Positions 57,784 through 64,000 of a stretch of DNA of 64,000 nt are shown here, piece by piece. Position 1 is the first letter of the stretch, and each line of letters starts with the position of its first letter. This DNA is from an uncultured cyanobacterium. Its GTDB lineage: Bacteria > Cyanobacteriota > Cyanobacteriia > Cyanobacteriales > Cyanobacteriaceae. Made by a program: the position numbers and the translations under genes. The stretch is from NCBI GenBank assembly GCA_963749915.1, contig CAVVOP010000022.1, forward strand, positions 598,681 through 662,680, written 5' to 3'. A model generated the notes under the pieces. It made no database searches. It was not told the origin of the DNA and saw only the letters and a program-made list of their open reading frames with translations.

Positions 57784-57868
57784 TGGGGGCGGAGAGACTT
57801 GAACTCTCACGACCGATTAAGGTCAACGGATTTTAAGTCCGTAGCGTCTACCATTCCGCCACGCCCCC
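57784..57868 (-). tRNA. trnL: tRNA-Leu (TAA), no intron
   Basis: GGGGGCG...ACGGA-CT-TAA-AA-TCCGT, long variable arm, GAGAG-TTCAAGT-CTCTC, CGCCCCC-A. Confidence 0.96.
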
Positions 57869-58050
57869 GGTAAGGCAATTTGCTCACATTTATTCATTGT
57901 ATCTAGTCTTAATTTAAAATGCAAGGGAAAAAGAAAAAGTTTCTAAAAATAGCCTTAAATTCTTAATCTTAGGGGAAAGTAGTGAGGAGATTAAGATAAG
58001 TAAATAGTTTATGATTGATAGCAAATAGGATACCCTGTGGAGGGATAGAT

Positions 58051-59571
58051 ATGACAGCTAAAACCCCCTTGCGAGATGCGATCGTGATTTTGCCTGGAAT
58101 CATGGGAAGTGTTTTACAAAAAGATGGTACAGACCTTTGGAATGTTTCTGGTCAAGTAATTGGGCAGATAGTAAAAAGTTTAGGCAAGGGGTTCAAGGAC
58201 TTGAAGCTAATGGGGGATGATCCAAAAGGTGGAGATATTGGTGACGGCATTAAACCGACTGGCTTGATTCAAGATACTTATCTCGTCCCTGGATTATCTG
58301 GGTTTGGAAAAATTGTTGATGGTTACAATAGAACATCAGAAATAATTACCAAAAACTTTCAAGTTACTGAGGGGAATATCTACGATGATCCAGAGGATAA
58401 AGCAGCAAATTTTTATCATTTTCCCTACGATTGGCGGCGGGATAATCGGGCTAATGCCCATATCCTGAAAAATTTATTAACTAAAAGATTGAAACGGTGG
58501 CGTGAGTTTAGTGGCAATAAAGATGCCAAGGTAATTCTCTTGGCCCACAGTATGGGAGGTTTAATTTCTCGTTATTATTTAGAGGTATTGGGAGGATGGC
58601 AGGATTGTAAGGCATTATTTACTTTCGGGACTCCCTATCGGGGTTCCCTGAATGCCGTTAACATCCTCGCTAATGGCATGAAAAAAGGCCCTATCGATAT
58701 CGGCGAAATCTTGAAGCTTAATGAGGTCATTCCTACCCTGACTTCTATCTATCAGTTACTCCCCAGATATAAAGCCCTGAAAATTGGCAACGATTTTTAT
58801 CGCATCGCTCAATCTCCGGTCGATCTTCCTAACATCGATCGCGTTAAAGCCACAGATGCTTTGAAATTTTATGACGAAATTGATGATGCTGCCGACGCTA
58901 ACCAGGGGAATCTCATTTATCGGAAGTCTTTTGTGACTTGTCCCATCGTCGGGGTACAGCAACCGACTCTGCAATCGGCTGAACTGGTGAATGGAGTAAT
59001 TAGCGTTAGTGAAGTCCTGCCCACTTTTTTACAAGATCGTTCCCATCTGGGGGATGGAGATGGCACGGTTCCTCAAGTATCAGCTACTCCCGTGCAGATG
59101 AACGATCTGGAAATGCTTTCCACTGTCGATTATATTGCAGAGAGTCACGGAGCCTTACAAAATCAGCCCGACATTTTACTGAATTTGCTCAAAGGCATTC
59201 AAACGGCCCAAACGGCTCCTCTGGAAGATGTGCGAGGAGCTCTGGAAAGTGTCACCAGAGGAAGAAGGAGTGGCGTCAAAGGTATTGGTTTGAGTCTAGA
59301 GGATTTCTATCTCATTAATGAACCTGTCACCCTGCGAGCCAAAGTTTCGGGAGGTAGTTCTTTTAACACGCTCACGGCTCAGATTAGCTGCGTTTCCCAC
59401 GATCGCCCTGTAATTACTCGGAATTTTGTCAATGACAATGAAAACTGGGTGATGTCAACAGATAACTTGGAAGCTGGGCTATATCGAGTGAAAGTCCAAA
59501 CCGATAATACCGGCGAAGATGCCCCGAACCCCGTCCACGAACTTTTTGAAGTTGCAGATTTAGGAGAGTAA
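58051..59571 (+). CDS. Alpha/beta-hydrolase (lipase/LCAT-like) with C-terminal beta-rich domain
   Basis: LPGIMGS oxyanion strand, FPYDWR, AHSMGG nucleophile elbow, GTPYRGS, GDGTVP, late His (ESHGAL); GGAGG RBS before ATG 58051. Confidence 0.88.
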   Translation: MTAKTPLRDAIVILPGIMGSVLQKDGTDLWNVSGQVIGQIVKSLGKGFKDLKLMGDDPKGGDIGDGIKPTGLIQDTYLVPGLSGFGKIVDGYNRTSEIITKNFQVTEGNIYDDPEDKAANFYHFPYDWRRDNRANAHILKNLLTKRLKRWREFSGNKDAKVILLAHSMGGLISRYYLEVLGGWQDCKALFTFGTPYRGSLNAVNILANGMKKGPIDIGEILKLNEVIPTLTSIYQLLPRYKALKIGNDFYRIAQSPVDLPNIDRVKATDALKFYDEIDDAADANQGNLIYRKSFVTCPIVGVQQPTLQSAELVNGVISVSEVLPTFLQDRSHLGDGDGTVPQVSATPVQMNDLEMLSTVDYIAESHGALQNQPDILLNLLKGIQTAQTAPLEDVRGALESVTRGRRSGVKGIGLSLEDFYLINEPVTLRAKVSGGSSFNTLTAQISCVSHDRPVITRNFVNDNENWVMSTDNLEAGLYRVKVQTDNTGEDAPNPVHELFEVADLGE

Positions 59572-59577
59572 ACAATT

Positions 59578-61653
59578 ATGGCTGACTTCTGCGCTTTACT
59601 GATCGGTATTGATTATTACCAACCCAATCCTTACTACAAGAGCCTACAGGGGGCGGTGCGAGATATTGACAAGGTTGCAGATTATCTGGAGAAATCCCGA
59701 CAAGTACCTTCAGAAAAAATTACACGGCTGACTTCTCCTTTGCCGGATACTAATTCTCTGGCAGATGTCAGGGCGGCACGTCAGGAAATGCCCCCAACCT
59801 ATGAAAATATTGTCAAGGCTTTTAACCGCATCACCGAAACTGCCCAAGCCCAGGATCTAGTTTACATTCACTATTCTGGTCACGGTGGGCGGGCAAAAAC
59901 AGCTTACCCCGACTTGAAAGGAGAGGGACAGTACGATGAGGGTTTAGTGCCGATGGATGTGGGCAATGATGGCTACTATCTGCGGGATGTGGAAATGGCT
60001 ACTCTGCTGAAACGGATGACGGATAAAGGGTTAATCGTGACGGTTATCTTTGATAGTTGTCATTCAGGGGGTGCAACGCGAGGTGATGGTGAGATTCGGG
60101 GTTCGAGAAATGGAGAACCAGATACCAAGGACAGACCTGCTGATAGTGCCGTAGCGACCAGGGAGGAATTAGTTCAAAATTGGTTAAATTTAACCCAAGG
60201 AGACCAAAAAGAAGGCTGGTTGCCGAATCAAAGGGACTATGTTTTCTTAGGTGCTTGCCGTCCTACGGAGTTGGCCTATGAAGCAGCCTTTGATAGCAAA
60301 GATCGCAATGGAGCATTAACTTATTGGATGATTGATACCCTTGTTAATAGCAAGTCTGCATTAACTTACCAGTCTCTCTACAATCGCGTCAAAGGGATGA
60401 TTCAAAGTAAATTCCCCAATCAATTACCGATGTTGTTAGGGGAAGGCGATCGCTTGGTATTTGGGGATAAACAACAATATAAACCTTATACCCTGGTCGT
60501 TATTGACGTAACTGAAGACCAAAAAGAGATTACATTAGATGCCGGAATGGCGGCTGGTTTAAGCTCTGGTACTCGTTTTGCCATTTATCCCACCGACGAT
60601 GTTTCTGATAAAACCCAACAACTGGCGATCGCCGAATTGACAGACGAGATTCAAGCGGATAAATCAACGGCTAGAATTTTAAGTCCTGATGAGGGGGGAA
60701 TTGTTGTTAAAGGCAAGATCGAACCAGGTGCTTCGGCGGTGATGGTAACCGCACCCGTTAATTTAATTAAGAAAGTTCGTTTATTCACCCAAAAGCAAGC
60801 AGGCGATCGCGAACAGGATCTACCTGTAAATTTAGTTGATAAACAAGTTGAAGCTCTAGCAAAAGTTCGCCAAGCTTTAGTAGATAATGGCTGGGTAGTG
60901 GAAGTTAAAGATGGGGAAGAAGCGCACTATCAAGTTGCGGTTGGTAAAGATGGGGAGTATGAAATCTGTATTGGAATGCCCATTAAAAACTTGCGTCCAC
61001 CCTTAAAAATTGACGATCTAGAAGCACCACAAAAAGTGGTCGATCGCTTGGTTCACTTAGGCAAATATCAAGCTGTGCAAGAGTTGGACAATCCTGCTTC
61101 CGAGTTGACTGATTATTTGGAATTTGAGTTGTGCGATAAGAATAAACAACCTTTTCCCGATCCGCAAAATGTTTCTTTAAAACCGGGAGAGGTTTCCTTT
61201 TTAAAACTTAAAAATACCTACGAGCAAACATTAAATGTAGCGGTTTTAGATTTAGAGCCAACTTGGGAAATTTCTCAGGTTCCCGTTCAAGGAAAGATAG
61301 CCTCTTTTCTGCCTTTAGATCCCGGACAAGAAGCATTTACTAAGTTACGTTTACAACTGCCTGGGGATTATCAGCAAATAATGGAAACTTTAAAAGTGTT
61401 TGCCACTAAGGGAGTAGCAAACTTTCAATGGTTACTGTTACCATCATTAGATGAACAACCAGCAACTAGGGGCGCTACTCTTAATGAGGAGTTACGAACT
61501 AGGGGGGGTAATGTCAATCCGCTTAACAATCTCTTGACGGCTATCGGGGGTGATGTCAATAATCCCCCGAAGTTAACTCGTGCTATGATTTACGAAAGCG
61601 ATCCAGAAGCGGAATGGGTCACGAAAGAAATTGTAATCACCGTTCAATCGTAG
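59578..61653 (+). CDS. Caspase-family (C14 meta/orthocaspase) protease with long C-terminal region
   Basis: ALLIGIDYY, L.GAVRD, HYSGHG (His), IFDSCHSG (Cys), AC...E.A.E, GALTY. Confidence 0.93.
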   Translation: MADFCALLIGIDYYQPNPYYKSLQGAVRDIDKVADYLEKSRQVPSEKITRLTSPLPDTNSLADVRAARQEMPPTYENIVKAFNRITETAQAQDLVYIHYSGHGGRAKTAYPDLKGEGQYDEGLVPMDVGNDGYYLRDVEMATLLKRMTDKGLIVTVIFDSCHSGGATRGDGEIRGSRNGEPDTKDRPADSAVATREELVQNWLNLTQGDQKEGWLPNQRDYVFLGACRPTELAYEAAFDSKDRNGALTYWMIDTLVNSKSALTYQSLYNRVKGMIQSKFPNQLPMLLGEGDRLVFGDKQQYKPYTLVVIDVTEDQKEITLDAGMAAGLSSGTRFAIYPTDDVSDKTQQLAIAELTDEIQADKSTARILSPDEGGIVVKGKIEPGASAVMVTAPVNLIKKVRLFTQKQAGDREQDLPVNLVDKQVEALAKVRQALVDNGWVVEVKDGEEAHYQVAVGKDGEYEICIGMPIKNLRPPLKIDDLEAPQKVVDRLVHLGKYQAVQELDNPASELTDYLEFELCDKNKQPFPDPQNVSLKPGEVSFLKLKNTYEQTLNVAVLDLEPTWEISQVPVQGKIASFLPLDPGQEAFTKLRLQLPGDYQQIMETLKVFATKGVANFQWLLLPSLDEQPATRGATLNEELRTRGGNVNPLNNLLTAIGGDVNNPPKLTRAMIYESDPEAEWVTKEIVITVQS

Positions 61654-61669: not shown

Positions 61670-63175
61670 ATGAAAAAAATCCTCATACTCGCATCTAACC
61701 CCCGCAAAGACCTCAACCTCGACGATGAAATAAGGCTGCTGAGAGATGTAGTCGATCGATCCCGCGATCGCGATCAATTTGAGATTGTCAGTGAACCGGG
61801 AGTAAAAGTTGGGGATTTACAGGGGCTACTACTTCGGCACGAACCACAAATTGTACATTTTTGTGGGCATGGGGGTGGCGAGGAAGGGTTAATCTTCAAA
61901 ATGGAGGGAGGAGGCGAACAGTGGGTACGAGCAGATGCACTGGCTGGTATGTTTAAGCTAAATCCCATCTGTAGCCACGTTAAGTGTGTGTTGCTCAACG
62001 CCTGTTATTCAGAAGAACAAGCCAACGTTATTGTGAGCGGTATTAATTATGTAGTTGGCATGAGCCATGAAATTCAAGATGACGCAGCAATTGCCTTCTC
62101 AAAGGGGTTCTATTTAGCGTTAGGCTACGGATGTTCGATCGATGATGCGTTTGAGTTTGGCAAAAATGCAATTCAGTTAGAGATTTCGGGCAGTTCTAAG
62201 AAACGATCGGCGATATCTGAAGTGCAACGCCAGATGGAGGTGATTGATGCAGTGAAAAACACCCCAATTCCCGAACATTTAAAGCCAATTCTCAAAAAGA
62301 AGGCCACCCTAACCTCAGATTCAAGTCCTAATACTCTCTCTCAGGAAAAAACAGTCGAGATTCAACTGGCTATTGACAAAACATTAGAGGCAGATGACAA
62401 AGAGACAGATGCCAAAGTCAAGCAGTATCGCGATCGGGCCAGATGGTACCTAGAAGATCGAAAATTGACCGAGGTTGAGAAAATTCGGTTAAACCAGCTT
62501 CAAAAACAATTAGGACTTGACCAAAAGGAGGCAGATCGGATTTTAGAGGAGGAGCTTGCGCCAATTCATCGATCGCAGCAGAATTATCGGGAGCTACTGA
62601 ATGAACTCATTACCAGAGGTTGTTATCCATTCGATCCAACGATTCAGGAAGAGTTAAAACAGTGTCAACGAGAAGAAAATCTAACGGAGGAAGAAGTTAA
62701 CGAGATTTCACGTTCTATCCTTGAAGCCGCAGAAGCAGCCTATCAGAAAAAGCAGAGGCAGGAAGCACAACAAGCCGATGAGAATAAACGACAACGCTAC
62801 GAACAGGAGTTTATACGAGCGATTAGTGCTGGGTATCCCATAGAGGATTTAGTTCGCAGTGGTCTGAGAAATTTTCAGCATTCTTTAGGACTGAGTGATG
62901 GGGATATTGAGCGAATTGAACAACCGATTATTGCCCCCAAAGAAGTGGCATATCAACAGGAGTTAGCCGAGGCACAGCGACAAAGGGAACAAGAAGAAGA
63001 AAAGGCAAGAGAGCGATCGCAGCAACGGGAAGAGGCCGAACGGAAACGAGTGCAGGAGGAAGCAGCAAAACGAGAACAACAACGCCAGCTTGAACTCGAA
63101 CGGCAACGTCTGGAAGAAGAACGACGTGAGCGAATGAAAACGAGGCAGGGTAAATCAATCATTACAACGGTTTGA
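61670..63175 (+). CDS. CHAT domain protein with helical repeats and coiled coil (5' part of a frameshifted CHAT-FGE gene)
   Basis: KILILASNP, IVHFCGHG, VLLNACYS, F..GFY.AL..G; AAGGAG RBS; E/R/Q-rich coil. Confidence 0.88.
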   Translation: MKKILILASNPRKDLNLDDEIRLLRDVVDRSRDRDQFEIVSEPGVKVGDLQGLLLRHEPQIVHFCGHGGGEEGLIFKMEGGGEQWVRADALAGMFKLNPICSHVKCVLLNACYSEEQANVIVSGINYVVGMSHEIQDDAAIAFSKGFYLALGYGCSIDDAFEFGKNAIQLEISGSSKKRSAISEVQRQMEVIDAVKNTPIPEHLKPILKKKATLTSDSSPNTLSQEKTVEIQLAIDKTLEADDKETDAKVKQYRDRARWYLEDRKLTEVEKIRLNQLQKQLGLDQKEADRILEEELAPIHRSQQNYRELLNELITRGCYPFDPTIQEELKQCQREENLTEEEVNEISRSILEAAEAAYQKKQRQEAQQADENKRQRYEQEFIRAISAGYPIEDLVRSGLRNFQHSLGLSDGDIERIEQPIIAPKEVAYQQELAEAQRQREQEEEKARERSQQREEAERKRVQEEAAKREQQRQLELERQRLEEERRERMKTRQGKSIITTV

Positions 63176-63254
63176 ATTTGATGTCATTACCGTAGATAAA
63201 AAGGGCAGGGAAAACAGCCGCACTCGAAAGTCAGCCGAGTTCTTTGCTGAGGAT

Positions 63255-63989
63255 TTGGGGAAGGGTGTTTCCCTACACATGGTAAGGATTCCAGGGGGAA
63301 CTTTTCAGATGGGTTCCCCAGCAGGACAGGGAACAGATGAAGAGCGACCTCAACATTCTGTCACCGTGCCTTCATTTTTTATGGGAAAATACCCCATCAC
63401 CCAAGCTCAGTGGCGGGCTATGGCGGCTCTGCCTCAAGTTGAAATCCCACTCAATCCCGATCCGTCTCACTTCAAAGGTGATAATCGTCCGGTGGAACAG
63501 GTCTCTTGGGATAAGGCGGTGGAATTTTGTGAGCGTCTCTCTCGCTTTACAGGGCATCAATACCGTTTGCCCTCTGAAGCTGAATGGGAATACGCCTGTC
63601 GAGCGGGGACAACCACACCCTTCTACTTTGGCGAAACCCTGACCCCAAAGTTGGCCAGATGTAAAGCTAATTTAGGTATGGCTTTAGTTACCATGTTCAT
63701 TGGAAAAACAGCTCCCGTGGGCAGTTACTTGCCAAATGCGTTTGGACTCTATGATATGCACGGTAACGTTTGGGAATGGTGTGCCGATACTTGGCATGAA
63801 AACTATCAAGGTGCACCGACAGATGGAAGCACTTGGTTAGAAAGTGATAATGATTATCGAGTACTGCGGGGCGGTTCATGGGGCGATGATCCCCAGGTCT
63901 GCCGTTCCGCGAGCCGTTTCTGGGGTAGGCTCTTCGACCTCAGCACTTTCGGTTTTCGTGTTGCCTGGGTTTCCGGGAGGACTCTTTAA
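63255..63989 (+). CDS. FGE-sulfatase/SUMF1 (C-type lectin fold) domain; probable 3' part of the CHAT gene (frame open from 63138)
   Basis: IPGGTFQMGS, ITQAQW, RPVEQVSW, RLPSEAEWEYACRAG, NAFGLYDMHGNVWEW, RGGSW, GFRV. Confidence 0.88.
   Translation: MGKGVSLHMVRIPGGTFQMGSPAGQGTDEERPQHSVTVPSFFMGKYPITQAQWRAMAALPQVEIPLNPDPSHFKGDNRPVEQVSWDKAVEFCERLSRFTGHQYRLPSEAEWEYACRAGTTTPFYFGETLTPKLARCKANLGMALVTMFIGKTAPVGSYLPNAFGLYDMHGNVWEWCADTWHENYQGAPTDGSTWLESDNDYRVLRGGSWGDDPQVCRSASRFWGRLFDLSTFGFRVAWVSGRTL
63864..63989 (+). other. Candidate DGR variable region (VR)
   Basis: Between RGGSW and GFRV, 13 of 23 codons end in C and none in A; non-Asn residues occupy positions expected to derive from AAY codons of a template repeat. 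Confidence 0.6.
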
Positions 63990-64000
63990 CCTTTTATTCC

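Follow-up and report, generated by a model that had tools for sequence, protein, structure and literature searches.

A probably fossil DGR variable region in the split CHAT-CLec gene of a hydrolase-caspase operon from an uncultured cyanobacterium

The 3' end of a gene of the CLec/FGE fold, reaching the stop codon close to the end of a 64,000-nt stretch of an uncultured cyanobacterial genome (hereafter the window, G000:C22:598681-662680), is probably a fossil variable region (VR) of a DGR (diversity-generating retroelement, a type of element that alters binding sites), i.e., a formerly hypervariable and now orphaned part of the broken sensor of a laterally acquired operon, whose neighbouring genes and published counterparts suggest a role in defence. 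The original prediction, made from the codon pattern, was that the sensor is, or was, hypervariable; an adenine-specific scar and the divergence of the homologues at the variable positions speak for the past tense, while the present tense is not supported, as a cognate template was found neither in the assembly nor more widely, no near-identical reads over the VR were seen, and the sensor gene is frameshifted. The features concerned are as follows.

57784-57868, minus strand: tRNA-Leu(TAA), the higher-GC operon beginning about 150 nt from its 5' end.
58015-59571, plus strand: LCAT/PGAP1-like alpha/beta hydrolase (PF02450, E 6e-15; AHSMG elbow; ATG at 58051).
59578-61653, plus strand: caspase-like protease, Peptidase_C14 (PF00656, E 1.6e-20; PADLOC caspase, E 2.6e-39; GHG and DSCH motifs).
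61670-63175, plus strand: CHAT domain and helical/coiled-coil linker, the N-terminal half of the split gene (PF12770, E 1.2e-5; His66 and Cys112 motifs).
63147-63989, plus strand: FGE-sulfatase/CLec-fold domain, the C-terminal half, an open frame of 280 aa (PF03781, E 2.8e-62; TvpA 2y3c, E 7e-19).
63154-63161, plus strand: ATCA tandem duplication at the frameshift between the CHAT and CLec halves, from the sequence and the fused homologues.
63864-63989, plus strand: DGR-type VR, with LRGGSW, a 23-codon core (63882-63950), GFRV, a tail and the stop, from codon skew and comparison with template repeats (TRs).
63990-64000, plus strand: start of a pyrimidine-rich tract, which also follows the stops of the other VRs of the genome; end of contig C22.

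The 23 core codons had been quoted correctly: 13 of them end in C, 6 in T, 4 in G and none in A, the third-position usage being A 0.31, T 0.37, C 0.17 and G 0.15 in the genome, and A 0.26 and C 0.20 upstream within the same FGE frame. With the amino acids fixed and the codons redrawn, at least 13 C-ending codons with none ending in A were obtained in 0 of 200,000 draws by genome usage and in 1 of 200,000 by the usage of the operon; an equal skew was found in 841 of the 998,582 overlapping 23-codon segments of 2,470 long ORFs. It is therefore very improbable that the segment is merely a fast-evolving binding loop in a foreign gene of higher GC, with C-ending codons by chance and no DGR involved; the raised GC of the operon and the lack of a found template would agree with such an origin, but the operon's own codon usage yields the pattern in that single draw, and the synonymous positions follow the TR consensus.

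This consensus was built from motif matches extracted from the genome and the fetched loci, 155 in number, of which 34 were template-like and 116 coding, the remaining 5, neither coding nor A-rich, being left out. Compared with the consensus of the 34 cyanobacterial TRs, which is not the cognate TR, the window is changed at 10 of 14 adenine columns and at 2 of 45 conserved non-adenine columns, the third positions of the AAY codons being pyrimidines in all 7 cases. The reference set of 28 VRs, defined as in-frame coding ends with no more than three non-adenine mismatches to one of the 34 TRs, differs from the same consensus at 2-11 adenine columns and 0-7 non-adenine columns (mean 2.7), with 0-1 A-ending codons; the 11 FGE ends with at least four A-ending codons show 7-15 non-adenine differences. 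The Fisher test of the scar contrast (p 9e-7) is somewhat overstated, because the non-adenine columns include the protein scaffold and the controls were picked by their A-ending codons. The length of 23 codons is unique to the window among 114 in-frame cores, and GFRV is followed by W where most others have C, which may be due either to drift or to an unusual template. The tail resembles other VR ends, its CGGGAGG end being common to the templates of contigs C23 and C8. Taken at the sequence level, the scar was very probably written by a DGR.

In six close homologues, the identity to the window amounts to 78-81% in the domain body and to 6-28% at the variable positions (P0238 and P0124 were left out of this comparison, their bodies having been mis-parsed). 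In the genome G739, within the same domain subfamily, two VRs flanking avd differ at 17 sites, all of them at codon positions 1-2. The locus itself (L216:9278-14548; G739:C145) has two CLec genes of the caspase type, whose sister VRs lie on either side of avd and a Pepco gene; neither RT nor TR was found there, and the TRs found in G739 do not fit the subfamily VR tested. It is improbable that the window gene has never been a target and that a single recombination event gave it the 3' end of a paralogue diversified by a DGR. For such an origin, CLec ends are known to be shuffled as modules (PMC7517822, in the part consulted), the tails after GFRV differ among P0114, P0116, P0119, P0122 and P0123, and four of the five closest BLAST homologues end in the ..PxLF type, the window in ..SGRTL. 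However, the tail of P0112, from the same subfamily, is ..APRTL, the G739 member carries a VR and has avd behind it, and no donor paralogue with the tail of the window was found in the genome.

DGR cassettes or their relics occur at five places in the genome. The cassette on C1 has the order target-avd-RT-TR, with an intact avd (NF033474, 133 bits) and an intact RT of 356 aa; this complete DGR (G000:C1:19450-24990; L236, L003) lies behind a caspase-nSTAND1-CLec target, beside a divergent Trypco1 gene, and its VR contains one base more than the TR, at an adenine run, which throws the last codons into another frame; the DGR itself may have made this indel. The DGR of C23 comprises RT, TR and target on that contig and a remote target on C21. 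At its locus (G000:C23:1-2917; L005), which holds no avd, a truncated PIN gene stands directly 5' of the RT, the latter being spread by two frameshifts over three frames, and the TR is one base longer than either target. The remote target, with 15 adenine mismatches and one non-adenine mismatch to the C23 TR, is the CLec gene of a VMAP ternary system of CHAT, EAD1-VMAP-C, a MoxR-type AAA and the CLec target (G000:C21:764170-771813; L237); it is broken within the FGE domain and then followed by a DDE transposase. The RT on C8 (G000:C8:888072-890103; L004) is damaged like that of C23, its 3' end being deleted into its own TR, of which the tail remains, with IS1 directly upstream, and no VR carrying this tail was found. 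At C8:366k, avd and a VR stand alone, with neither RT nor TR, and at C5:190k only stumps of a VR and of avd are present. These loci (G000:C8:364908-371734 and C5:190090-190400) hold a second orphan VR family of three VRs with one common tail, core lengths of 27 and 20 codons at C8, and avd or an avd stump after two of the VRs; no template for it was found in the assembly, and the flanks of the orphan VRs on C8 and C5 are fully assembled. Indels were observed in the C23 RT (two), the C23 TR, the C1 VR, the C21 target and the window gene. Sequencing error in general is an unlikely cause of them, since a detector able to catch 56 of 106 simulated deletions raised no flag in any of 106 ordinary genes.

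The original prediction proposed searching the genome for a template-like copy and for RT or avd genes, the lack of both counting against it. DGR RTs and avd are present, all the avd and RT matches of the assembly belonging to other loci and none being linked to the VR of the window, while the matching template was not found: an adenine-tolerant scan of the whole assembly (34 contigs) returned the window itself only. The group II intron-like RTs on C10 and C12, with 26% identity to the DGR RT, were set aside. The closest TR of the genome, that of C23, differs from the window by 17 non-adenine mismatches and 7 gap positions, versus 1 and 2 non-adenine mismatches to its own true targets; the C1 TR differs by 22 mismatches and 15 gap positions, and the best-fitting of the 34 TRs, a foreign one, by 14 and 6. 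The C23 TR shares 64% nucleotide identity with the window VR over 131 nt and so passes the rule of more than 50% for remote targets (PMC7517822), which, as worded in the part at hand, is loose, and passing it does not make a template cognate. This identity and the shared CGGGAGG end are what could be said for the window as a remote target served in trans by a resident DGR, whether the intact one of C1 or that of C23; nevertheless, retrohoming would copy the non-adenine bases of the template, and the misfit of the window largely refutes this scheme, which is left with next to no credence.

Wider searches gave the same outcome. The template pattern, with three mismatches allowed, was found in 0 of 400 genomes of the phylum, many of them from distant lineages; a metagenome scan produced 10 loci, 1 TR-like and 2 VR-like, none of them cognate; the scans of viral sequences contained no cognate template, none of the TRs of G739 and G809 fitted the window in an ungapped comparison, and the best match of a plasmid BLAST (69.7%) was not cognate. 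No close orthologue of the CLec gene was found in 40 relatives, the best DNA identity being 67-70% over long stretches, and the GTDB scan reached 59% protein identity as the best among the matches listed (top full-length loci). The avd gene was above the cut-off in 4 of 20 genomes of the family, the own genome counted. In 4 of the 15 listed sequencing runs, no near-identical read was seen over the VR, at the duplication or at the end of the contig, and no read spanning the frameshift; runs X1 and X3, from sediment populations, contained reads 99-100% identical to parts of the domain body, and run X15 gave no matching read.

The window stops 11 nt past the stop codon because contig C22 terminates there, within the pyrimidine tract. 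The start of avd follows the VR stop by 97 nt on C8, 113 nt on C1 and 125 nt on a Microcystis plasmid, and the smallest of the 34 contigs has 6.5 kb, so that a small cassette could be missing. Thus, an avd-RT-TR cassette in unassembled DNA right past the end of C22, or on a small lost contig, is a rather unlikely alternative, to which the very clean scar also lends some weight; the VR could then still be rewritten, though the frameshift leaves a separate CLec piece only. Against it, all the avd and RT matches in the assembly lie elsewhere, and a cassette that shares no more than 65-70% with the others would be expected to assemble as unique sequence. Moreover, no contig end of the assembly overlaps the window tail, the order of the contigs carries no adjacency signal, and orphan VRs with fully assembled flanks exist in this very genome. 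The next contig after C22 was not found by synteny, because the genus is rearranged around the tRNA-Leu. A join of C22 to C23 was considered and found unsupported: C23 starts with the truncated PIN gene and its TR misfits the window. Quite unlikely is the fuller version of the same idea, in which a CLec receptor diversified by a DGR, with its cassette just past the contig end and intact CHAT-CLec alleles in the population, would be wired to a lipase-caspase zymogen module and, as a hypermutable sensor, set off a death effector in the form of a lipid hydrolase under protease control.

The FGE/CLec frame and the CHAT ORF are in different reading frames, which the original prediction did not mention. 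In each of the four closest homologues aligned, both parts belong to one protein, of 749-767 aa, and the FGE core is present in 68 of the 119 homologues of the CHAT half among the matches listed. Judged by these alignments, the gene is a former CHAT-linker-CLec fusion of about 750 aa, now split by a 4-nt duplication: four extra bases account for the frame shift, the junction length then equalling by eye that of P0114, and chance alone would put a 4-nt tandem repeat into 7.7% of stretches of 29 nt. Translation of the FGE/CLec frame could possibly restart at TTG 63255 or ATG 63279. Because the assembly offers no fitting template and the gene is broken, it is most likely a frozen leftover of a well-known system; with no cognate TR found and no intact ORF (frameshift at 63154-63161), it does not count as a current DGR target and is probably dead, resembling a target which has stopped working. 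Catalysis by SUMF1/FGE depends on two catalytic Cys after the RGGS-aromatic motif. The corresponding segment of the window contains one Cys only, the matches to FGE structures stopping at residue 209-216 of 244, and the frame, devoid of the second catalytic Cys, is accordingly not predicted to be a formylglycine-generating enzyme (SUMF1).

The operon consists of three same-strand units after the tRNA-Leu, namely the hydrolase, the caspase, and the CHAT ORF with the FGE/CLec frame following it; the hydrolase lies next to a caspase-like protease with catalytic motifs, and such motifs are present in the hydrolase, the caspase and the CHAT ORF. The operon looks to be of foreign, lateral origin, judging by its composition and distribution: its GC content is 0.44-0.49 versus 0.37 in the genome, the caspase was found in 0 of 19 genomes of the family, and the lipase is encoded in 16 of 400 genomes of the class, the best match (81% identity) being in a genome from another order. 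The first 80 nt of contig C17 (G000:C17:1-80) also look GC-richer than the genome and may be foreign or chimeric. In the genomes G001 and G004, the place 5' of the tRNA-Leu is occupied by a gene that in G000 (C22:470970-471695) lies 185 kb off and inverted, which points to a rearrangement breakpoint at the start of the foreign operon; in G003, the tRNA-Leu match falls into two pieces about 200 nt apart (intron-like). The same lipase-caspase pair (81%/61%) occurs in G788, followed by a caspase-nSTAND1-WD40 gene. Other lipase loci carry CHAT-NACHT, CHAT-AAA or CHAT-TPR genes, and some unrelated ones; the genes beside the 15 fetched lipase homologues vary, with a caspase homologue within the fetched DNA in 3 only. 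As the neighbours differ in this way between G788 and the other lipase loci, the sensor slot looks exchangeable. The lipase has RG motifs at residues 394 and 402, and a VTRG linker insert is common to the lipases of the window and G788 (L161) only, among 15 aligned. TRG motifs are present also in the caspase (residues 168, 631 and 642), candidate cleavage sites of the pair (58015-61653).

For cyanobacterial DGRs it is established that RT and Avd miscopy the template adenines, that the cDNA replaces the VR, and that the CLec binding surface varies as a result (PMC7517822, in the part consulted). In the window gene, a DGR RT with Avd would likewise have copied an AAC/AAT-rich template RNA with miscopied adenines, and the cDNA would have replaced the 3' end of the CLec gene. 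The mutagenesis would have randomised the ligand-binding face of the CLec domain, on which the VR residues are placed by homology to CLec domains, the third-position pyrimidines having stayed. The CHAT-CLec gene has probably arrived by lateral transfer in the company of the lipase and caspase genes, the three making up a putative module of the defence type with CLec as the putative sensor, CHAT and the caspase as proteases and the hydrolase as the protease-activated effector; binding of a ligand would have brought both proteases, CHAT and caspase, into action and so released the hydrolase for activity. The own template has probably been left in the donor or lost, as happened with other cassettes of the genome, in which case the sequence would be frozen and the sensor would no longer carry its CHAT domain.

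The meaning of the finding is modest: the feature is real, was correctly recognised and is of a known kind. It adds one more orphaned DGR target and indicates that a DGR since lost can be recognised from its trace in the codons, even where the template is gone. Turnover is well illustrated by this genome: it has five cassettes or relics, two or more VR lineages lacking a template, and indels that cluster in DGR parts. Were a live cassette hidden in the gap, DGR hypermutation would be linked to a hydrolase-caspase effector module, i.e., a testable three-gene system.

Among the known systems, a protease-activated alpha/beta-hydrolase module from Actinobacteria and Pseudomonadota, with a hydrolase of about 33 kDa that turns toxic once cut at Arg-Gly sites, was described by Evans et al. 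2025 (PMC12642450). As far as the sections at hand go, the window is alike in that the hydrolase adjoins a caspase-like protease, contains RG motifs and the sensors change, whereas its own hydrolase has 506 aa with a C-terminal extension and is likened by gene context, not by homology to that hydrolase. In the same sections, FGE is named with Pepco and DGRs with EACC1, neither with the hydrolase. The pairing of a hydrolase with a DGR-type CLec sensor was not found in the literature searched, of which the supplements listing loci may hold it. Counter-invader systems with FGS/FGE domains and linked DGRs were presented by Kaur et al. 2021 (PMC8195603); from the portion consulted, the likeness lies in the FGS domain as a proposed invader-binding lectin fold fused to effector peptidases, with the DGR adjacent or elsewhere, while the window operon is without an NTPase or EAD and has the lipase-caspase pair as its partner. 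According to the part consulted of Dore et al. 2024 (PMC10907252), clade 5 DGRs diversify putative antigen sensors of conflict systems. Common to both are CLec targets in a CHAT, caspase, STAND or VMAP context, the genome of the window also having caspase-nSTAND1-CLec and VMAP-MoxR-CLec targets, and several loci per genome, many degenerate and IS-associated; however, each class there keeps one complete locus, with diversification seen in reads, and for the class of the window there is neither a template nor read evidence. A precedent for the architecture is provided by Vallota-Eastman et al. 2020 (PMC7517822), in the part consulted of which C-terminal CLec domains with a 3' VR are set on N-terminal signalling or protease domains, CHAT-like N-termini being listed, and Nostoc all3226 is a paralogue that retains remnants of TR-VR homology although no RT lies near it. 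The window resembles these variable proteins in a CLec domain with a 3' VR on an N-terminal domain, and differs from them in that no template of its genome fits and the fusion is frameshifted; CHAT-CLec DGR targets and orphaned VRs as such are already published there.
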